NCBI GenBank assembly: GCA_964436465.1
Contig: CAYTCV010000001.1
Location: forward strand, 31,852 to 95,851
From: an uncultured bacterium
GTDB taxonomy: Bacteria; RBG-13-66-14
Reading direction: 5' to 3'
Length of the DNA: 64,000 nt
In this document: one piece after another, positions 1,005 through 63,858 of the stretch
Position numbering within the stretch: the first letter of the stretch is position 1
Layout: every line of letters starts with the position of its first letter
Notes under the pieces: generated by a model
The model's input: only the letters and a program-made list of their open reading frames with translations
What the model was told of the DNA's origin: nothing
The model's database searches: none
Program-made: the position numbers and the translations under genes

Positions 1005-1877
1005 TCAACAATCGTCCAACGGTTCCCAGTCCAGGTATTTATACGCGTCGCAGCGGGAGCAGAGTTTTATTTTATCCCTCTCGCCCCGTGAGAGCAGTTC
1101 GCGGTAGCCCCCCGCGACGGGACCGTTCCAGATTTCGAGCACTGTCTTCGAGTTCACGTCGCCTATAACGCCGCGTCCCTCCACGTCCCAGCAGCACAGC
1201 ACCGCCCGGCCGTCGGTGAAGAAGAACATCTCGTTTAAAATTTTCAGGCAGGGCTTGAGGACTACGTCGGCCTCGGTCTGACCGGACCAGGGCCAGCGGT
1301 AGAGCTGAACGAGCTCCACGCTGTCGGCCAGCGGCTCCCAGTAGCGCCGGAACTCCTCCCGCTCGTCCGCGTTCTCCGGCATCTCTATCATCCGCACGTG
1401 GGTGGCGCAGGCGGTGCCCTTCGCGAGCTCGCAGAAACGGGTGACGCGCTCGTACACCGCGTCGCGGTCTATTCCGGGCCGCGTCTTTTCGTAAACCTCG
1501 GTGGAGACGGCGTCGATGGAGAAGCGGACCTCGTCGAGGCCGAGCGCCAAAAACGCCCGCGCCCGCTTTTCGGGAAGAAGCTCGCCGTTGGTGTTGAGCT
1601 CCGCCCGCGCCGTGGGGTCCTTCTTGATGTAGGCGACTATTTCCTCCAGCCGGTTGTCGCACAAAGGCTCGTTTTGCAGGAACGGGCGGTAGGTGATGCC
1701 CAGCCCGCGTGTTTCGTCGATGATTTTTCGCCACAGGCGCTCCTCCATCCTCACCGGGCCCCGCGTGAGGTCCTTCTGCAGGCAGAAGGGGCAGGCGGCG
1801 TTGCAGGCGGTGGTGGTCTCGATTTGGATGACCCGGGGAGCGGGGGGGAACTCGCTGAAGCGGTCGGTGTTTTCCAT
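1005..1877 (-). CDS. radical SAM / SPASM-domain protein
   Basis: CNAACPFC (CxxxCxxC) radical SAM cluster motif near the N-terminus; C-terminal Cys-rich SPASM/twitch-like region (CLKILNE...LCCWDVEG...LEIWNG...CSRCD). Confidence 0.8.
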   Translation of the reverse strand: MENTDRFSEFPPAPRVIQIETTTACNAACPFCLQKDLTRGPVRMEERLWRKIIDETRGLGITYRPFLQNEPLCDNRLEEIVAYIKKDPTARAELNTNGELLPEKRARAFLALGLDEVRFSIDAVSTEVYEKTRPGIDRDAVYERVTRFCELAKGTACATHVRMIEMPENADEREEFRRYWEPLADSVELVQLYRWPWSGQTEADVVLKPCLKILNEMFFFTDGRAVLCCWDVEGRGVIGDVNSKTVLEIWNGPVAGGYRELLSRGERDKIKLCSRCDAYKYLDWEPLDDC

Positions 1878-1963: not shown

Positions 1964-2350
1964 ATGAGGAAGGTCCTGATTTCGGTTTTCATGGTGGTCG
2001 CCCTGGTCCTCCTGACCGGCGCCGATACGGGCGACGTCTGGGGCCCCGACGCGCCCAAGACCACGAGCAACCACGACCACGCCCGGCCGCAGGTCATCGT
2101 CATCATGCTGGTGCCCGGCGCCGACATGACGGCCGTCAATAACTTCAACTCCGCCCAGCACGTGAACCGCATGGAGCACGTCTCGGGCCAGATTTACCGC
2201 GTCTACCTCGAAGCAGGGACGGACATGGTGGCCGCCCGGCAGGCGTACGCCCGGAACGTCCTGTTCTCCAGGGTGGACTACGAGGTCGACGTCAGCTACG
2301 AGGTTCACGCCGGTTGCGCGGCCGGCGGAGGGGTACACGCAGGGACATAG
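1964..2350 (+). CDS. hypothetical small secreted protein
   Basis: GGAAGGAG RBS 6 nt before the ATG at 1964; N-terminal signal-peptide-like MRKVLISVFMVVALVLLTGA; divergent from the radical SAM gene. Confidence 0.45.
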   Translation: MRKVLISVFMVVALVLLTGADTGDVWGPDAPKTTSNHDHARPQVIVIMLVPGADMTAVNNFNSAQHVNRMEHVSGQIYRVYLEAGTDMVAARQAYARNVLFSRVDYEVDVSYEVHAGCAAGGGVHAGT

Positions 2351-2486
2351 GGCGCTTCCCCGGTTGCGGTTTCGGGCGTGTAGGTCGGGTCATCGTGGAG
2401 ACCGTCGTCCCCATCGGGAGATGGTCCGGTTCTTCGTGCTATAATCCTGAAAAATTCCACAAACGATAAGCTCCGGGGGTCACGCG

Positions 2487-4706
2487 ATGAAGACCACGGT
2501 ACGACTCGTTCTTTTGTTCACGCTTCTGTGCGCCGTGACCGGTGTCTCGGCGCGCCAGGTAACGGCGGTCCGAACCCAGGTCGCGCCCATTATCGACGGA
2601 CGGCTGACCGACATCGGCTGGACGCAGGCCGAGGCGACGACGGGTTTCGTTTACCGCGGGGTCGGTCTCCCGTGGCCCGCCTCCCAGCAGACCCTGGTGC
2701 GCGTCCTCTACGATGACGACGCCCTCTACATCGGCGTGGCCTGCTACGAGACCGAGGTGGGCGATATAGTGGCCGACATGGTGTACCACGACGACCCCCT
2801 GTGGCTGGATGACTCTTTCACCGTCTTTCTGGACACCTTCGACGACGGCCGCTCGGCGTACATGCTCGTGGTCAACCCCCTGGGCACACGCTACGACGCC
2901 TACTTTACCCAGGACGGCCAGTACATAGACAGCTCCTGGGACGGGGACTGGAAAGCGGCGGCGGGCATCGAGGAGGACCGCTGGGTGGTCGAGTTCCGAA
3001 TCCCCTGGCGGGAGCTGCACTACGTGGACCCCACCGACGGCTGGGGCATAGATTTCTGGCGCAACGAGATTCCCAACGATGAGTCCTCCATCTGGAGCAA
3101 CCTGGACACCAACCTCTACAAGGTCAGCAAGTTCGGCCGGCTGGAGGGCATCCGGGACCTGGAGATGCCCGTGACGGTGAGCTTCGTCCCGTACGGCACG
3201 GCCAAGCGGCAGTGGAACGACGTGGAGGACGCCATCCTGTGGGAGGACCCGTCGCTCATCACAACCGGCGTGGATGACCGGTTCTCGGGCGGTATAGACA
3301 TCGATTTCCGCCCCTTCCCGGCCATGAGTATCGTGGGCAGCATCAATCCCGACTACGCCCAAATCGAAAGCGACCTGGACGAGCTGAACCTCTCCCGCGA
3401 CGAGCTGTACCTCGACGAGAAGCGGCCCTTCTTCCGCGACGGCAAGTCCCTGTTCGACCTGCCGCTGGAGCTCTTCTACTCCCGGCGGCTCGAGGACATC
3501 TACTACGCCGGAAAGCTCTACGGCAAGCTCGGCGGCCTGCGATACTACCTCCTCGACGTGGAGGGCACCGTGGCCGATAAGGCCGACCTCACTTACTACC
3601 GCGGCGACTGGTGGAGGGAGCGCTTCAACGCCAACGTGGCGGCGGTACGCCTGACCCACGACATCTTCGAATCCAGCGCCATCGGGCTCACGGCCGTCAA
3701 CAAGTACCAGCGCGAGCGGATGACCCTCGAATCGCACGGGCCTTTCGATTGGGAGTACGTGACGGTGCCCGAGCAGCTCAACGATACCACGCTGGGGCTG
3801 GATTTCAGCTGGGCCACGGATTTCGGTCTCCAGGCCACCGGCGAGTTCGCCTACGAGTCGAACCCCGAGCGCGAGGTGGACGACTACGCCTGGTACGTGG
3901 GCGCCGAGTGGAACGACCCCAACTGGACGGTCGGGGTGCAGGCCCAGCAGGTGCAGCCCAAATTCGACGCCGAGATGGGCTACCTGCCCTACACGGACCT
4001 GGACACCCTGGGGGGTTACGCGTACGTGGAGTACCTGTGGAGTATCTGGGAGGGGTGGTTCAAGGACGTGTACGTCGGCGGCGACTACTACCACTACAAC
4101 CAGAACACCGATGACCTGCTGGCCTACCAGGGCTGGAGCTCCTACGTCGGGGTGGATTTCCTCTGGGGCCTGACGCTCTACGGCAGCTACTGGAACTACT
4201 ACGACACCGAGGAACTCTCCGAGACCGAGCGCTACAGCTACCAGAACGGCACCTACTCCGGGACCCTGGGGTTCAACCTGGACCGCTACTCGGGCCTGGG
4301 GCTGACCTACGTCGGCGGGGATTTCTACGGGTACGACCTCAACTACTGGGAGCTGAATTACTCCTACGCGCTCTTCTCGGGGCTGACCCTCGAGGGGGGG
4401 GTGGAGTTCGAGAAGCTGGCGGACCAGGACATCATCGGCGCCCCGGATTTCGACGACCTCGGATGGGAGGGCCAGCACTGGTTCGTGAACCTCGGCATGA
4501 CCGCGAAGTTCGTAGACGAGGTGTGGCTGCGGGTTTTCACTCAGCGTAACACCTTCGGCGGGCGGGAGGAGCTCAACGCCCTTCTGGCCTACAACTACCT
4601 TCCGGGCAGCTACGTGTACCTGGTGTACAACCTGCTCCAGCCCACGACCCGCGAGGAGGCGGAGCACATCCTGTTCCTGAAGCTCACCTTCGCGCTGGAC
4701 ATCTGA
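2487..4706 (+). CDS. secreted CBM9-like / DUF5916-family protein
   Basis: Signal peptide MKTTVRLVLLFTLLCAVTGVSA. N-terminal region (PIIDGRLTDIGWTQA...YDDDALYIGVACYE...DDSFTVFLDTFDDGRSAYMLVVNPLGTRYDAYF) resembles carbohydrate-binding family 9 / DUF5916 proteins; 739 aa. The antisense 815-aa ORF is rejected. Confidence 0.7.
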   Translation: MKTTVRLVLLFTLLCAVTGVSARQVTAVRTQVAPIIDGRLTDIGWTQAEATTGFVYRGVGLPWPASQQTLVRVLYDDDALYIGVACYETEVGDIVADMVYHDDPLWLDDSFTVFLDTFDDGRSAYMLVVNPLGTRYDAYFTQDGQYIDSSWDGDWKAAAGIEEDRWVVEFRIPWRELHYVDPTDGWGIDFWRNEIPNDESSIWSNLDTNLYKVSKFGRLEGIRDLEMPVTVSFVPYGTAKRQWNDVEDAILWEDPSLITTGVDDRFSGGIDIDFRPFPAMSIVGSINPDYAQIESDLDELNLSRDELYLDEKRPFFRDGKSLFDLPLELFYSRRLEDIYYAGKLYGKLGGLRYYLLDVEGTVADKADLTYYRGDWWRERFNANVAAVRLTHDIFESSAIGLTAVNKYQRERMTLESHGPFDWEYVTVPEQLNDTTLGLDFSWATDFGLQATGEFAYESNPEREVDDYAWYVGAEWNDPNWTVGVQAQQVQPKFDAEMGYLPYTDLDTLGGYAYVEYLWSIWEGWFKDVYVGGDYYHYNQNTDDLLAYQGWSSYVGVDFLWGLTLYGSYWNYYDTEELSETERYSYQNGTYSGTLGFNLDRYSGLGLTYVGGDFYGYDLNYWELNYSYALFSGLTLEGGVEFEKLADQDIIGAPDFDDLGWEGQHWFVNLGMTAKFVDEVWLRVFTQRNTFGGREELNALLAYNYLPGSYVYLVYNLLQPTTREEAEHILFLKLTFALDI

Positions 4707-4785
4707 GGCGGGCGGGGATGGTCGGTTATCGTTTATTAGGGTCGGGCGGAGCGGTTCACGACTTTCTCGGAGCGGGGGTCGATAG

Positions 4786-4980
4786 ATGAGCGGCTCCGGC
4801 GGGCTGTCCACGGGCACCAAGGTCCTCATCGGCGTCCTGGCCGTCGTCGGGGCCTTCACGCTGTTGAGCTCCATCTTCTGGTCCATATGGATTTTCCTGC
4901 GCTGGATTCTGGGGCCGATGCTCGTGGTCGGATTGGTCGTGTACCTCGTGGTGCGCTGCCGTGAAAGGAAAAAGCGATGA
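4786..4980 (+). CDS. small two-TM membrane protein, paralog 1 of 3
   Basis: 64 aa, two hydrophobic helices, conserved WILGP motif, basic C-terminus RCRERKKR; stop overlaps start of paralog 2 (ATGA). Confidence 0.5.
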   Translation: MSGSGGLSTGTKVLIGVLAVVGAFTLLSSIFWSIWIFLRWILGPMLVVGLVVYLVVRCRERKKR

Positions 4981-5192
4981 CCGGGGGCTCCGAGGGCGCG
5001 GGGTGCCTGCTGGCGGGATTGGTCTTCCCGCTGGCGCTGGTCGGCATCGGTATCATTGCGATTCTAGGCCTCGTTGCCGGAATTTTCGGCCTCTTCATCG
5101 GCCTGTTCTGGTTTCTTCTAAAGTGGATTCTCGGGCCGCTCGTCGTCGTCGCCGTCATTTTCTATTTCATCGGCCGCGCCCACCGGCGGTAG
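4977..5192 (+). CDS. small two-TM membrane protein, paralog 2 of 3
   Basis: 71 aa; FWFLLKWILGPLVVVAVIFYFIG aligns with LRWILGPMLVVGLVVYLVV of paralog 1; basic C-terminus. Confidence 0.5.
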   Translation: MTGGSEGAGCLLAGLVFPLALVGIGIIAILGLVAGIFGLFIGLFWFLLKWILGPLVVVAVIFYFIGRAHRR

Positions 5193-5211
5193 CACGGCCC
5201 AGGGAGGGAAG

Positions 5212-5388
5212 ATGAAACCTCTTACCGGAAGCAAGGGCACGCTCATCGCCTTCGGCATCCTGGTTCTGGCCATCCTGGTCGCATGGCTGTTGTTCAAGAG
5301 CCTGCTGTTCCTGGTCATCTACGCCCTGCCGGCGGTGGTGGTCATCGGGCTCATCGTGTGGCTGGCGGCCCGCAGGCGGGAGCGGTAG
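5212..5388 (+). CDS. small two-TM membrane protein, paralog 3 of 3
   Basis: 58 aa ORF below the track cutoff, found by manual translation (MKPLTGSKGTLIAFGILVLAILVAWLLFKSLLFLVIYALPAVVVIGLIVWLAARRRER); strong AGGGAGGGAA RBS; same architecture as paralogs 1 and 2. Confidence 0.45.
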   Translation: MKPLTGSKGTLIAFGILVLAILVAWLLFKSLLFLVIYALPAVVVIGLIVWLAARRRER

Positions 5389-5815
5389 AAAGGCCCCCTC
5401 TCCCCGCGGAAAACGGCCCCCTCCCCCCTTTGGGGGGAGGGTCGGGGAGGGGGGTGCCGATATTCCCTCTCCCTTTCAGGGAGCGGCGCGCCGACGGGAC
5501 TAAGGGTGAGGGCTACCTTAATAAACGCGGGCGGACCTAAAGGCCCGCCCCTACGTCATCGCAAATCGTGGGCATGGGTAGATGTATGTGTGTAAAAAGC
5601 GGCGGGGATAGGAATCCCCGCCCTACATTTACGCGAATGTCGGTGGATAAACAACCACGGGCGGGTGTGGACACCCGCCCCTACGGCATCGCATTTTGAC
5701 CAAGAAACGTAGGGCGGCAACCGGCGTGTGCCGCCCGGATTCATGGTGATGAAAAAAAGGGCGGGGTACAGAGCCCCCGCCCTACATTAAAAAAAGCGCG
5801 ATTTATTCCAACTCC
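5389..5815. repeat. cluster of REP-like GC-rich palindromic elements (locus 1)
   Basis: Multiple hairpins (ccctcccccctttggggggaggg; gcggcggggataggaatccccgcc; gggcgggtgtggacacccgccc; gggcggcaaccggcgtgtgccgccc; gggcggggtacagagcccccgccc), each followed by ctacg/ctacat (+catcgca) tails; also the motif actaagggtgagggctacctt. The same motifs recur at 8440-8712, 36190-36470, 42985-43018, 47900-48046 and 63525-63858. Confidence 0.7.
5753..5800. terminator. bidirectional rho-independent terminator downstream of panB
   Basis: A7 - hairpin gggcggggtacagagcccccgccc - tacattAAAAAAA; on the minus strand the hairpin is followed by T7 directly after the panB stop. Confidence 0.5.
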
Positions 5816-5823
5816 GTTTGCCT

Positions 5824-6639
5824 CTAGCTGAACCCGTGCTCCGCGCCGGGGAACTTCCCCTCCCGCACCTCGCCGGAATACTCCCCCACCGCCTTTTTCA
5901 TCATCTCGAAGCCGTCCAGGTAACGCTTCACGTGCTTGAGCTTCTTCCCCGGCAGCAGGTGCAGCATGTCGTGGAAGACGAGGATTTGGCCGTCGGTGTG
6001 CGGTCCGGCGCCGATGCCGATGGTGGGAATTCCCGCGGCCTCGGTGATGCCGCGCGCCAGCTCCGTCGGGATGAGCTCGAGCACGATGGCGAAGGCCCCG
6101 GCCCGCTCAATCTTCTTCGCCTCACGGAGCATCAGCTCGGCCTGGGCGTCGTCGCGCCCCTGCACCCTGTAACCGCCGATGCGGTGAATCGCCTGGGGGG
6201 TCAGGCCCAGGTGCCCCATCACCGGGATGCCGGCGTCGGATATCGCCGCGACTACGCGCTCGATTCCCGGCTGCCACTCGATTTTTACCCCCTGCGCCCC
6301 GCACGCGACGAATTCTCCGGCGTTGCGGACCGCCTCTGTCTCGCCCAACGAGAACGACAGGAAGGGCATGTCGCCCACGAGCATGGCCCGCTTCAGGGCC
6401 CGCTCCACGATTCGGGTGTGGTAGAGCATATCGTCCATCGTCACCCGGAGGGTGGTCGGCTCGCCGTGGATGACGTTGCCCAGGCTGTCGCCCACCAGGA
6501 CGAGGTCCACTCCCGCCGCGTCGCAGACCAGGGCGCTGGAGTAATCGTAAGCCGTCAGGCAGACGATTTTAGAACCCTCGGCCTTCTTCGCGGTAATCTG
6601 GGCGGCCGTCATCCGCTCCACGGACTGTTCCGCTCCCAT
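5824..6639 (-). CDS. panB: 3-methyl-2-oxobutanoate hydroxymethyltransferase
   Basis: Full-length similarity to PanB (LTAYDYSSA..., GDSLGNV..HG, GAQGVKIE, MGHLGLTPQ). Confidence 0.95.
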   Translation of the reverse strand: MGAEQSVERMTAAQITAKKAEGSKIVCLTAYDYSSALVCDAAGVDLVLVGDSLGNVIHGEPTTLRVTMDDMLYHTRIVERALKRAMLVGDMPFLSFSLGETEAVRNAGEFVACGAQGVKIEWQPGIERVVAAISDAGIPVMGHLGLTPQAIHRIGGYRVQGRDDAQAELMLREAKKIERAGAFAIVLELIPTELARGITEAAGIPTIGIGAGPHTDGQILVFHDMLHLLPGKKLKHVKRYLDGFEMMKKAVGEYSGEVREGKFPGAEHGFS

Positions 6640-6648
6640 CGTCTCCCC

Positions 6649-7170
6649 CTAGGGTTGGAGCTCCGCCACTCGCTCGGGCTCACGAATACCGGTTCTTTTA
6701 AGGTTTTCCCACAGCTCGGCCACGGTCAGGCCGTCCTCGGGGTCCATGAACCCGGGCGCAATCTCGTTCGCCGGCGCGAGGACGAAATCTCTCCACCGCC
6801 GGCGCGGATGCGGTACCACGATGCCGTCCCGGTCGTAGAGCTCCTCGCCCAGGTAGATGAGGTCCAGGTCCAGCCGCCGGCCGCCGTCTTCCCGCCGACG
6901 GTCCTCGTCGCGGCCGAACCGCCGCTCTATGCGTCCCAGAAGAGCGATGAACTCTACGGGGTCGAGGGCGGTTTCCACGAGCGCCGCCGCGTTGTAGAAT
7001 TTCTCTCCGGAGGCCTTGCCCTGGGCCTCGGTCTCATACACGCCGGAGACCTTGACGACCTTCACGCCCCCGTCTTCCGCCAGCCGGACCAGGCCCTCGG
7101 ACAGGTTTTTATACCGGTCGCCGGAGTTGGAGCCCAGGGCGACGAGGGCCTGTCTTTTCACCGTGCTCAT
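6649..7170 (-). CDS. folK: 2-amino-4-hydroxy-6-hydroxymethyldihydropteridine pyrophosphokinase (HPPK)
   Basis: LVALGSNSGDR N-terminal HPPK signature; 173 aa; overlaps the aminotransferase stop (ATGA). Confidence 0.85.
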   Translation of the reverse strand: MSTVKRQALVALGSNSGDRYKNLSEGLVRLAEDGGVKVVKVSGVYETEAQGKASGEKFYNAAALVETALDPVEFIALLGRIERRFGRDEDRRREDGGRRLDLDLIYLGEELYDRDGIVVPHPRRRWRDFVLAPANEIAPGFMDPEDGLTVAELWENLKRTGIREPERVAELQP

Positions 7171-8339
7171 CGTTCCCGAAGATGTTCTTCGATAAGTGCC
7201 AGGCCGCGTTCGAGCAATGGCTTGGGCTGCGTGAGCGCCAGGCGGATGCGGCCCCGCCCCGCCTCGCCGAAGGCCGAGCCGGGGGTTAGTACGACGCCCG
7301 TTTTATCCAACAGCTCCCGGCAGAAGGCGACGTCGTCCGTCTCGACTCCCGGAATTTTCAGCCAGAAGTACGTGGCGCCGCCCGGCTTCTCGTGCCGCCA
7401 ATCCATTCCGTCCAACAGGGCCGAGACGGTCTCCCGCCGGTCGGCGTACACGGACACCGCCTCCTCCACGGCCGCATCTCCATCGTTTAACGCCACCACG
7501 GCCGCCGCCAGGGACGGCGCGAAGATGCCGGCCTGGTAGTAAACCTCGATTTTCTTGAGCGCGGCCACCGCCTGCGGATGCCCCGCCGCGAAGGCGATGC
7601 GCACCCCGGCCATGCCGTAGGCCTTGGACAGGGTGTGGAACTCGACGGCCACCTCGGCGGCTCCGGGGATGGACAGAATCGAGAGCGGCCCGTGGCCGTC
7701 GAAGGCGATGAACTGGTAAGCGTTGTCGTAGATTATCAGGGTCTCGGTTCGCCCGGCCCACTCCACCAGCTCCGCGAGGAATTTCGGTGTCGTCGCCGCG
7801 CCCGTGGGATTGTTGGGATAGTTGAGGATGATGAAGCGCGCCCGCTCCGCGACCCCGTCCGGAATTTCCGCAAGAGCGGGATGCCACCCCAGCTCCGGCT
7901 TCAGCTCCAGCCGGTGGACCTCCAGCCCCGCCACCCGGGCCGAGCTCAGGTAGGACGGGAAGGCGGGGTCGGGCAGAATCACCAGGTCGCCCGGGTCGGC
8001 CAGCGCCAGGTTCGCGTGGGAGAGCCCCCCCTTGCTGCCGGGCAGGAGGACGATTTCATCGGCGGAAATTTTTGCGCCGAAGTGGCGGGAGTACCAGCCA
8101 CGGATGGCGCCGACAAGCTCCGTCGAGCCGGTGTAGGGAGTGTATGAATATTGGGCGGGGTCGGCCGCGGTTACGGCCAGTTCCTCGACGACCTCGGCGG
8201 CGGGGCCGATATCGGGACCCCCGCGGCCCAGGTCGATGATTTCCAGCCCTTTGGCCGCGGCATCCCGGCGCCAGAGGGCCGTCTCCGAGAAAATGTAGGG
8301 TTTGACCGAGGCGAGGCGCTGTGCGGGGGAAATATCCAC
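7167..8339 (-). CDS. PLP-dependent class I aminotransferase
   Basis: NYPNNPTG, YDNAY, SKAYGMAGVRIAF (PLP-lysine) and R near the C-terminus; 390 aa. Confidence 0.85.
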   Translation of the reverse strand: MDISPAQRLASVKPYIFSETALWRRDAAAKGLEIIDLGRGGPDIGPAAEVVEELAVTAADPAQYSYTPYTGSTELVGAIRGWYSRHFGAKISADEIVLLPGSKGGLSHANLALADPGDLVILPDPAFPSYLSSARVAGLEVHRLELKPELGWHPALAEIPDGVAERARFIILNYPNNPTGAATTPKFLAELVEWAGRTETLIIYDNAYQFIAFDGHGPLSILSIPGAAEVAVEFHTLSKAYGMAGVRIAFAAGHPQAVAALKKIEVYYQAGIFAPSLAAAVVALNDGDAAVEEAVSVYADRRETVSALLDGMDWRHEKPGGATYFWLKIPGVETDDVAFCRELLDKTGVVLTPGSAFGEAGRGRIRLALTQPKPLLERGLALIEEHLRER

Positions 8340-8439
8340 GGGTTTCTCCTTCGGGCGCCGCTATTGTAACAAATCGGCGGGTGCGGTCGGGGAGATGGAG
8401 GTGATAGACAGCAGCGGGCGACCATGGACGGTCACCCCT

Positions 8440-8712
8440 ACGTCAAATTGTCGTCGTCCGTAAATGTAGGGCGGGGCTTCTACGCCCCGCCGCTTTCACC
8501 CCTCACCCCGGCCCTCTCCCCAAAGGGGAGAGGGGGACGGAAGCCCTCACCCCATCCCCGTCGGTGTGCCGCTCCATAAACGTAGGGCGGGGATTCCCAT
8601 CCCCGCCGCTTCCATGCGATGCCATAGGGCGGGGATTTCAATCCCCGCCGCTTCAACGTTCCTTATCTCGACCATCACTCCACTCTCTCCCCGGTACGGA
8701 GAGAGGAATGGC
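8440..8712. repeat. REP-like palindromic element cluster (locus 2)
   Basis: cccctacgtc; gtagggcggggcttctacgccccgcc; ctctccccaaaggggagaggg; gtagggcggggattcccatccccgcc; gggcggggatttcaatccccgcc; ctctctccccggtacggagagagg. Spurious + strand ORFs 8564-8770 lie inside these repeats. Confidence 0.7.
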
Positions 8713-36189: not shown

Positions 36190-36470
36190 GGTTTCCCTCT
36201 CCCCGTGGGAGCGGCTCGCCGACGGGCTACGGCGAGGGCTTCCATTGAAAAAGCGGCGGGGATGGGTATCTGCGGCCGAAGGCAAATCCCCGCCCTACAT
36301 TTCGGCATACTCCCTCCCCTCTTTGGGGGGAGGGCGGGGGAGAGGGGTGGAACGGCGGCCCGCAGAGGACTCGTCCTACGGGGCCGCCCTACGTCATCAC
36401 AACCCGGGGTGAGCGTCGGGATTGGAGGGGCGGGCGGGTGTGGACACCCGCCCCTACGTCGTAGCGAGCG
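36190..36470. repeat. REP-like palindromic element cluster (locus 3)
   Basis: ccctctccccgtgggag; gcggcggggatgggtatctgcggccgaaggcaaatccccgccctacat; ccctcccctctttggggggagggcggggg; gggccgccctacgtcatcaca; gggcgggtgtggacacccgcccctacgtcgtagcgagcg (the last unit is identical to one at 5650-5690). Confidence 0.7.
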
Positions 36471-36514: not shown

Positions 36515-36590
36515 TGGTGGACCCGAGGGGATTCGAACCCCTGACCTCCTCCACGCCAAGGAGGCGCGCTCCCAACTGCGCCACGGGCCC
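36515..36590 (-). tRNA. tRNA-Ala (anticodon GGC), CCA encoded
   Basis: Reverse complement GGGCCCGTGGCGCAGTTGGGAGCGCGCCTCCTTGGCGTGGAGGAGGTCAGGGGTTCGAATCCCCTCGGGTCCACCA folds as a cloverleaf: 7-bp acceptor stem, D-arm GCGC/GCGC, anticodon stem CCTCC/GGAGG with loop TTGGCGT, T-arm AGGGG-TTCGAAT-CCCCT. Confidence 0.9.
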
Positions 36591-42984: not shown

Positions 42985-43018
42985 TCGGGCGGGGACGGCG
43001 CCCCGCCCCTACACCCGG
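42985..43018. repeat. REP-like hairpin between hdrA and mvhD (locus 6)
   Basis: gggcggggacggcgccccgcccctacaccc, same GGGCGGGG-loop-CCCCGCCC-CTAC architecture, sitting inside the operon. Confidence 0.55.
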
Positions 43019-55101: not shown

Positions 55102-55229
55102 GTATCCGCGACGGCGAGCCGTTAATCCGCGACGGCGAGCCGTGTATCTGCGACGGCGAAGCCGTGAATCCGCGACGGCGAGCCGTGTATCTGCGACGGC
55201 GAAGCCGTGAATCCGCGACGGCGAGCCGT
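55102..55229. repeat. six tandem 21-22 bp direct repeats (GAATCCGCGACGGCGAGCCGT consensus) in a divergent intergenic region
   Basis: Units at 55102, 55123, 55144, 55166, 55187 and 55209 alternate between two variants (ATCCGCGACGGCGAGCCGT / ATCTGCGACGGCGAAGCCGT); they lie 45-175 bp upstream of the ECF sigma gene start and 165-290 bp from the divergent membrane-protein gene start. Confidence 0.8.
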
Positions 55230-63524: not shown

Positions 63525-63858
63525 CGCACCCGCCCGATGCTTCCGGTGCATAAATGTAGGGCGGGGATTTTAATCCCCGCCGCTTTGTTTACATGGCAGC
63601 CATCACCCCTGACCCCTCTCCCACAGGGAGAGGGGGGACCGCTACACCCCCCTCCCTAGCCCTCCCCCCAAAGAGGGGAGGGGATTGGCGGCAACCCTCG
63701 CCCCAAATGTGTTTGCGATGACGTAGGGGCGGGGCTCCGTCCCCGTCCGTTTTGCCTCTGAATGTAGGGCGGGGAATCCTTTCCCCGCCGCGTCTACCCT
63801 CACCCTAGCCCTCTCCCTAGCCCGTAAGCGCGCTTCCCCCCAGAGGGGGGAGGGGACT
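63525..63858. repeat. REP-like palindromic element cluster (locus 5), copies in both orientations
   Basis: gtagggcggggattttaatccccgcc; cccctctcccacagggagagggg; cctccctagccctccccccaaagaggggagggg; gcgatgacgtaggggcgggg (reverse complement of ccccgcccctacgtcatcgc); gtagggcggggaatcctttccccgcc; ctaccctcaccc (reverse complement of gggtgagggtag). Confidence 0.7.

Follow-up and report, generated by a model that had tools for sequence, protein, structure and literature searches.

A tandem array of genes for three small predicted membrane proteins beside a DUF5916 gene in Candidatus Coatesbacteria

Gene content of the locus

The window, defined here as the whole 64,000-nucleotide stretch of DNA that was analyzed, contains three consecutive small genes designated m1, m2, and m3 and referred to together as the minis. 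A sequence-only reading of this DNA had described three plus-strand ORFs with an ATGA overlap between the first two, a strong ribosome binding site before the third, and a position directly 3' of a CBM9/DUF5916 gene. Each of these features was confirmed. The ATG of m2 overlaps the stop codon of m1 as ATGA, and a strong Shine-Dalgarno (SD)-like site ends 2 nucleotides 5' of the m3 ATG. Weaker SD-like sites precede m1 and m2, and all three sites were read directly from the sequence. The m3 ORF is below the usual 60-amino-acid annotation cut-off. The features of the window and of related contigs are listed in Table 1.

Table 1. Positions of the mini genes and associated features in the window and on related contigs (L numbers).
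Feature	Contig	Position	Strand	Remarks
Radical SAM/SPASM gene	Window	1005-1877	-	Divergent pair with p128 in the RBG-13 clade
p128	Window	1964-2347	+	128 aa; signal-peptide-like N-terminus; no family match
815-aa ORF	Window	2439-4886	-	Opposite the DUF5916 gene, extends into m1; high-GC shadow ORF, not a gene
CBM9_1 and DUF5916 protein	Window	2487-4706	+	739 aa; upstream neighbor of the minis
Spacer, DUF5916 stop to m1 start	Window	4707-4785	+	79 nt; m0 of relatives absent here
SD-like site of m1	Window	4770-4778	+	GAGCGGGGG; weaker
m1	Window	4786-4980	+	64 aa; A-type mini membrane protein
Antisense ORF	Window	4856-5158		Overlaps minis; usual high-GC shadow ORF
SD-like site of m2	Window	4965-4969	+	AAGGA; weaker
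m2	Window	4977-5192	+	71 aa; A-type paralogue
Antisense ORF	Window	5118-5318		Overlaps minis; usual high-GC shadow ORF
SD-like site of m3	Window	5201-5209	+	AGGGAGGGA
m3	Window	5212-5388	+	58 aa; B-type paralogue
REP-like hairpins	Window	5389-5790		Cluster
Nested G+C-rich hairpin	Window	5392-5458	+	Right after m3 stop; likely transcript end
panB-folK-aminotransferase operon	Window	5824-8339	-	
REP-like hairpins	Window	8414-8660		Cluster
REP-like hairpin	Window	36432-36457		
tRNA	Window	36518-36590	-	Rfam, 65 bits
REP-like hairpin	Window	42987-43012		
Near-copies of m2 insertion 17-mer	Window	55150-55209		Two copies
REP-like hairpin	Window	63723-63748		
m0	L008	6497-6691		Translationally coupled 5' of m1
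m0	L034	4113-4307		Translationally coupled 5' of m1
m0	L013	9704-9901		Translationally coupled 5' of m1
Polytopic membrane protein (198-225 aa)	L013	9076-9672		Between DUF5916 and m0; clade C only
Polytopic membrane protein (198-225 aa)	L009	9075-9752		Between DUF5916 and m0; clade C only
DUF3592 gene	L029	3735-4526		After array, same operon
DUF3592 gene	L032	10626-11417		After array, same operon
DUF3592 gene	L032	11468-12235		After array, same operon
m2 pseudogene	L017	8515-8752		
m2 pseudogene	L024	1741-1978		
m2 remnant	L010	10733-10984		4 copies of FGIL-encoding repeat
m2 remnant	L009	10733-10948		2 copies of FGIL-encoding repeat

The protein encoded upstream of the minis has a signal-peptide-like N-terminus and matches the Pfam families CBM9_1 (E = 6.5e-8) and DUF5916 (E = 2.9e-10). 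A literature search for DUF5916 was without a match. This protein is 94% identical to one on an RBG_13_66_14 MAG contig, which identifies the source organism as a member of Candidatus Coatesbacteria.

The core of m1 is FWSIWIFLRWILGP and its tail is RCRERKKR. It is the best conserved of the minis, with 73% identity where the DUF5916 protein has 63%. The m2 protein has an FWFLLKWILGP core, a GRAHRR tail, and a Gly-rich first hydrophobic segment. Its Cys10 is invariant, and among the minis a conserved Cys is confined to m2. The m3 protein has a YALPAVVV core and an ARRRER tail.

The three minis are real genes under purifying selection. Their GC3 values are 0.86, 0.79, and 0.88 for m1, m2, and m3, compared to 0.82-0.91 in the neighboring genes, and GC at codon position 2 is approximately 0.4. 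The dN/dS ratio, from our own Nei-Gojobori estimates on close orthologue pairs of m1, m2, and m3, is 0.10-0.33 per gene. Starts and stops are conserved among orthologues, and gene calls made independently on JGI, ENA, NCBI, and Logan assemblies include all three. That the ORFs are coding and conserved is borne out by the coding-type GC3 and by orthologues in approximately 35 independent metagenome or MAG contigs, including a lineage of 56% GC. A six-frame comparison of stop-free lengths gave no discrimination at the GC content of the window. Spurious ORFs are frequent in high-GC DNA and two antisense ORFs overlap the region, but the reading of the minis as chance ORFs or antisense-coding shadows in 67% GC DNA is effectively refuted by GC3 in phase with the plus-strand ORFs, the SD sites, the conserved starts and stops, dN/dS below 0.35, persistence at 56% GC, and the independent calls in many assemblies.

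Paralogy, family range, and arrangement of the array

Paralogy was assessed by local alignment against 2000 composition-preserving shuffles. The m1-m2 alignment has a z of 10.2 and the m1-m3 alignment a z of 6.8, and none of the 2000 shuffles reached either score. The m2-m3 alignment is weaker, with a z of 3.0 and 29 of 2000 shuffles reaching the score. Judged by these alignments, m1, m2, and m3 are true paralogues, and their likeness exceeds an effect of composition.

The minis can be sorted into two types. The A-type consists of m1 and m2, which have the common core F-W-x-x-W-x-F-L-[RK]-W-I-L-G-P. Across the family the A-type is defined by F-W-x-x-W-x(2,3)-[RK]-W-[IVL]-L-[GA]-P, after which come a short Tyr-containing hydrophobic helix and then a basic tail, and this pattern is present in the alignments. 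The B-type is m3, a divergent form (z = 6.8 against m1) with Y-A-L-P-A-V-V-V at the position of W-I-L-G-P. The earlier claim of a W-I/L-L-G-P core in all three proteins thus holds for m1 and m2, but not for m3, which has Y-A-L-P-A there. The most divergent lineage has L-R-F-I-V-P-G in its m3, which bridges the A- and B-types.

A word-seeded search of 5.8 billion proteins identified 31 homologues, which split cleanly into three orthologue groups of the 64-aa, 71-aa, and 58-aa types. A second search added five for a total of 36. Among 1.84 billion representatives at 50% identity, searched exhaustively with an HMMER profile, only 4 clusters reached E<=1e-3, all belonging to the same three groups. 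The family is new, and in the databases covered it occurs only in Candidatus Coatesbacteria (phylum Coatesiibacteriota).

The three peptides, m0 (described below), and the neighboring genes were scanned against Pfam, NCBIfam, PHROGs, and PADLOC, and the minis and m0 gave only sub-threshold, composition-type matches. With the PDB included, no significant match was obtained, in agreement with the initial impression that no family can be assigned. PADLOC returned 0 anti-phage defence families at E<=0.1, and the best E-value in a profile search of PDB sequences was 0.91. The best NCBIfam match of m1 is NF041554 (SA1362 family, also a small membrane protein), aligning residues 12-58 with model positions 2-47 at E = 9.7e-4. 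The match reaches 19.2 bits, below the curated cutoff of 42, and m2 and m3 are unmatched. The PLDc_N domain (PF13396), a small membrane domain having two hydrophobic segments, has a Trp at the start of its second helix, Pro/Gly within it, and a terminal Y-x-x-x-R basic stop-transfer. These three features also occur in the minis in a register of W, P, and Y that differs by 2 residues; PF13396 is not among the matches at E<=1 for the 31 members.

Rfam at gathering thresholds showed no RNA element near the array. The sole Rfam match in the window at these thresholds is the tRNA in Table 1.

The arrangement of the array can be sorted into five clades. In clade A, which includes the window and relatives with at least 90% DUF5916 identity, DUF5916 is followed by m1-m2-m3. 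In clade B (approximately 82% identity), it is followed by m0-m1-m2-m3, with 4-nucleotide overlaps at m0/m1 and m1/m2. Clade C (approximately 63% identity) has DUF5916, a 198-aa polytopic membrane protein, m0, m1, m2, and m3. In this clade the whole block has the opposite orientation with respect to its flanks, panB-folK-aminotransferase at one end and p128 with the radical SAM gene at the other. Clade D (56% GC; L027 and L029-31) has an AI-2E transporter gene, a promoter, m1-m2-m3, a gene for a DUF3592 membrane protein of 263 amino acids, and, at the end, a strong terminator. Clade E (L032-33) has fabD, a promoter as in clade D, m2-m3, a truncated extra m3, and two DUF3592 genes, and m1 is absent. 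Homologues of p128 lie near the array in clades A, B, C, and E.

The order m1-m2-m3 is constant from 98% to 63% DUF5916 identity and in the 56% GC lineages that lack DUF5916. The triplication is ancient, because this order is kept in every lineage having all three genes. The tandem triplication proposed from the sequence alone is therefore upheld as paralogy (z = 10.2 and 6.8), but not as a recent event, as the array is old and ordered.

The m0 gene, absent from the window lineage, encodes an extra 64-65-aa membrane protein with two hydrophobic segments and a conserved FIEGLS loop. Its placement as a fourth paralogue was considered and is not demonstrated (hhalign probability 3%; shuffle z of -1.2 to 2.9 against m1-m3). 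The polytopic protein of 198-225 amino acids between DUF5916 and m0 has no Pfam or PADLOC match. The DUF3592 proteins of the DUF5916-less lineages are membrane-anchored, 255-263 amino acids in length, and score 25.4 and 26.7 bits, just over the gathering score of 25.3. The function of DUF3592 was called unclear in a published paper. No co-operonic partner is common to all mini-bearing lineages.

Individual genes of the array have deteriorated or been lost in several lineages. The m2 genes of L017 and L024 are pseudogenes with a TTG to TAG change and a 19-nucleotide insertion (TACGGCTTCGCCGTCGCAGTTACC) that falls within the WILGP codons. The two contigs were assembled independently from one strain, and its DUF5916 protein has 98% identity to that of the window. 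Near-copies of a 17-mer from the insertion are present twice in the window and also in an intergenic spacer of L018, which may point to a very small element of mobile or REP type. The m2 of L009-L012 is degenerate: the second hydrophobic segment is gone, and an expanding FGIL repeat is present. This repeat is encoded by a 12-nucleotide tandem unit present in 4 copies in L010 and 2 in L009. Contig L018 contains an apparent frameshifted m1/m2 chimera, so no intact A-type copy is present there. Coverage of this MAG contig is low (13), and for this reason the chimera is possibly an assembly error. The m3 gene is intact in every lineage examined, and at least one intact A-type gene is retained with it in every lineage, L018 possibly excepted.

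Transcription signals and relation to DUF5916

The ATGA or GTGA overlaps of 4 nucleotides join m0, m1, and m2, and the spacers before m3 are 3-19 nucleotides long. Gene spacing of this kind shows the minis to form one polycistronic unit that is, by its overlaps, partly translationally coupled.

A consensus scan of the 79-nucleotide spacer between DUF5916 and m1 found no promoter-like or plus-strand terminator-like site, which makes co-transcription of the minis with DUF5916 plausible in the window genome. No sigma-70 promoter was found in a scan of window positions 2000-6000. The m1 leader was considered by eye as a promoter like that of L029 and rejected; the spacer would be 20 nucleotides, with the -10 hexamer overlapping the ATG. 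Contig L029 has a sigma-70-like TTGACT-17-GATAAT promoter, followed by m1-m2-m3, the DUF3592 gene, and a terminator with a 12-bp stem. A promoter of this type is also kept in L027 and L032. By these predicted signals, the array is shown to be an autonomous transcription unit in the deep lineages.

The hairpin that follows the m3 stop is the likely transcript end. The folded stretch at 5380-5480 has a free energy of -61.6 kcal/mol and a z of -2.6. This hairpin belongs to a cluster of REP-like sequences.

Intergenic DNA of the window contains scattered REP-like G+C hairpins with the pattern GGGCGGG-N8-CCCGCCCCTAC, which has 9 matches against 0.64 expected. Two of the clusters are mutual inverted copies with arms 86-94% complementary, and they bracket the panB-folK-aminotransferase operon. 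The inverted clusters could have served as a recombination substrate for the inversion of the DUF5916 and mini block between clades.

The tie to DUF5916 that had been read from the window holds in the RBG_13_66_14-like clade, but not in the deeper lineages, where the array is present and DUF5916 is absent from the contigs (L027, L029-31, and L032-33). Within the clade, the minis are always immediately 3' of DUF5916 over 63-98% DUF5916 identity, and DUF5916 and the minis were inverted as a single unit between clades. Together with the window spacer, in which promoter- and terminator-like sites are absent, this would fit minis that are dedicated accessory subunits anchoring, inserting, or regulating the CBM9/DUF5916 envelope protein. 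Such a role is nevertheless considered improbable. The arrays of the deeper lineages have their own promoter, and the minis have no extramembrane domain that would extend to a protein secreted or located in the outer membrane. Relatives of DUF5916 at E<=1e-10 number more than 1600 and are spread over Zixibacteria, Acidobacteriota, Gemmatimonadota, Bacteroidota, and other phyla, compared to approximately 36 minis and their 4 clusters among the 1.84 billion representatives. The triplet did not recur beside DUF5916 in other phyla: no small genes were found downstream at three non-Coatesbacteria loci (Zixibacteria and two others), where the next gene is 75-113 nucleotides away and there is therefore no room for minis. 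The adjacency is thus shown by gene order to be specific to the clade.

Predicted topology and candidate roles

The minis have GRAVY values of 1.05-1.67 and an uninterrupted hydrophobic stretch of 43-44 residues in m1 and m3 and 57 in m2, in accord with the earlier view that they are membrane-embedded. Gly, Ala, and Ser are abundant in the first hydrophobic segment. Near the middle of the stretch, one basic residue has aromatics on either side, and Gly-Pro comes next. The C-terminal tails contain 3-5 Arg/Lys each and are basic as originally described.

Two hydrophobic helices had been proposed for each protein. The 43-57-residue stretch with its central cluster agrees with this, but the AlphaFold2 monomer models show one unbroken helix for m1 (pLDDT 85) and m2 (pLDDT 87). 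These single helices neither fit a bilayer nor settle the topology. No PDB structure matched the m1 model in a Foldseek search. The hydrophobic stretch is too long for one span and fits a tight helical hairpin with both ends cytoplasmic, and this predicted topology is plausible for the minis. The N-terminus of m2 is acidic and has no Lys or Arg; in view of this and the invariant Cys10, m2 could have a third membrane span.

The reading preferred here, held tentatively and judged close to an even matter, is that the array constitutes an autonomous operon whose products, hairpin proteolipids translated together, would form a hetero-oligomer in the membrane. Each hairpin would be composed of a short N-terminus, a small-residue-rich TM1, a minimal turn, a short TM2, and a poly-Arg/Lys tail in the cytoplasm. 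The turn would bear the conserved aromatic and basic belt (FW..W..[RK]W), with Gly-Pro after it. In the cytoplasmic membrane, hairpins of the A- and B-types would come together as a hetero-oligomeric proteolipid complex, as may be expected because two distinct types are retained and co-translated. Since almost no residue protrudes from the bilayer, action would have to be intramembrane, through helix-helix contacts. The complex may scaffold or tune membrane-anchored envelope proteins of its own operon, or alter a property of the membrane itself. The candidates encoded in the operon differ between clades, one having the 198-aa polytopic protein with m0 and another the DUF3592 proteins. A generic role of this kind is suggested because the changing partners are all membrane or envelope proteins. 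Given the losses of m0, m1, and m2, the paralogues could also be redundant formers of homo-oligomers and not obligate partners.

The Pmp3/YqaE/RCI2 proteins (PF01679) are approximately 55-65 amino acids long, have two hydrophobic segments and no soluble domain, act within the membrane, and are often present as several paralogues. The minis resemble them in size, in the two hydrophobic segments, and in the lack of a soluble domain, and their extreme hydrophobicity and basic tails would also suit stress-type proteolipids that modulate ion leak or membrane potential in this manner as homo-oligomers or redundant paralogues. The dispensability of individual paralogues in some lineages suggests redundancy, and the near-consensus promoter of the low-GC lineages suggests high expression. 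The minis differ in their FW..W..[RK]W[IL]L[GA]P motif and in the fixed heterotypic A/A/B array. Neither PF01679 nor any other stress family is among the matches of the 31 members at E<=1, and two types conserved in a fixed order point to distinct roles, not to simple redundancy. This alternative is regarded as about as improbable as the accessory role for DUF5916.

A more specific form of assembly, in which A- and B-type hairpins would build a phylum-specific hetero-oligomeric ring or pore, acting as a channel or as a lipid or envelope-assembly scaffold with the adjacent envelope protein (DUF5916 plus the 198-aa protein, or DUF3592), is less likely again; it would be a membrane machine not described before.

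Class II holins have two TMDs, an N-in/C-in topology, and a basic C-terminus. The minis are like them and like PF07332 (Phage_holin_3_6, YqjE-like) in a length of 60-70 amino acids, two hydrophobic segments, a putative tight turn, and a basic tail. Hydropathy and charge agree with the holin pattern of two TMDs and a charged C-terminus, whereas the AlphaFold2 monomers show one continuous helix. Weak sub-threshold PF07332 matches over the hairpin were obtained in 10 of the 31 members (best E = 0.014). The two members with scores shown reach 12.6-13 bits against a gathering score of 28.4, and no PHROGs match was found below E = 0.078. The annotated neighbors include no phage, endolysin, or spanin gene, and the flanks are housekeeping (panB, folK, aminotransferase, and radical SAM). 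The three to four ordered paralogues of the array lie in conserved chromosomal synteny and are under purifying selection over deep lineages. The holin-like function suggested earlier is consequently not sustained, and a lysis or cell-death cassette is very unlikely.

Leaderless bacteriocin loci, such as those of aureocin A70 and garvicin KS, contain three to four tandem paralogous cationic small ORFs. The minis are likewise tandem, paralogous, cationic, and Trp-containing, their copy number varies between lineages, and a radical SAM/SPASM gene lies less than 3 kb away in the RBG-13 clade; secreted multi-peptide bacteriocin-like peptides or RiPP precursors for that enzyme would be the corresponding reading. 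The minis differ in being approximately twice as long and far more hydrophobic, and their locus has no adjacent exporter or immunity genes and lies in a housekeeping neighborhood. A soluble secreted peptide would not have such GRAVY values or so many contiguous hydrophobic residues, an adjacent ABC exporter or peptidase is absent, and conserved Cys occurs in m2 only. The radical SAM gene pairs with p128, not with the minis, in the RBG-13 clade and is absent at the L029 and L032 loci. The RiPP idea is rejected on account of the hydrophobicity and this absence from distant loci, and the bacteriocin-like reading as a whole is scarcely credible. Type I toxin arrays (ldr/ibs-like) have a promoter and an antisense RNA for each copy and encode single-TM peptides of less than 50 amino acids. 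The minis, unlike these, overlap (ATGA) or sit 3-19 nucleotides apart in one polycistron, and no Rfam family reaches its gathering score in the region.

Small membrane proteins are systematically overlooked by annotation, and orphan hydrophobic micro-proteins are common. The minis are an unannotated family without relatives in curated libraries, from a candidate phylum without a cultured member. The family is new yet of a familiar sort, the orphan small hydrophobic membrane proteins, and its taxonomic range is narrow. A ring or pore, if real, would provide the first functional handle on the neighboring DUFs and on Coatesbacteria envelope biology. If the preferred hetero-oligomer reading is correct, the array would be a lineage-specific intramembrane module and would point to functional partners for DUF5916, DUF3592, and the 198-aa polytopic protein.
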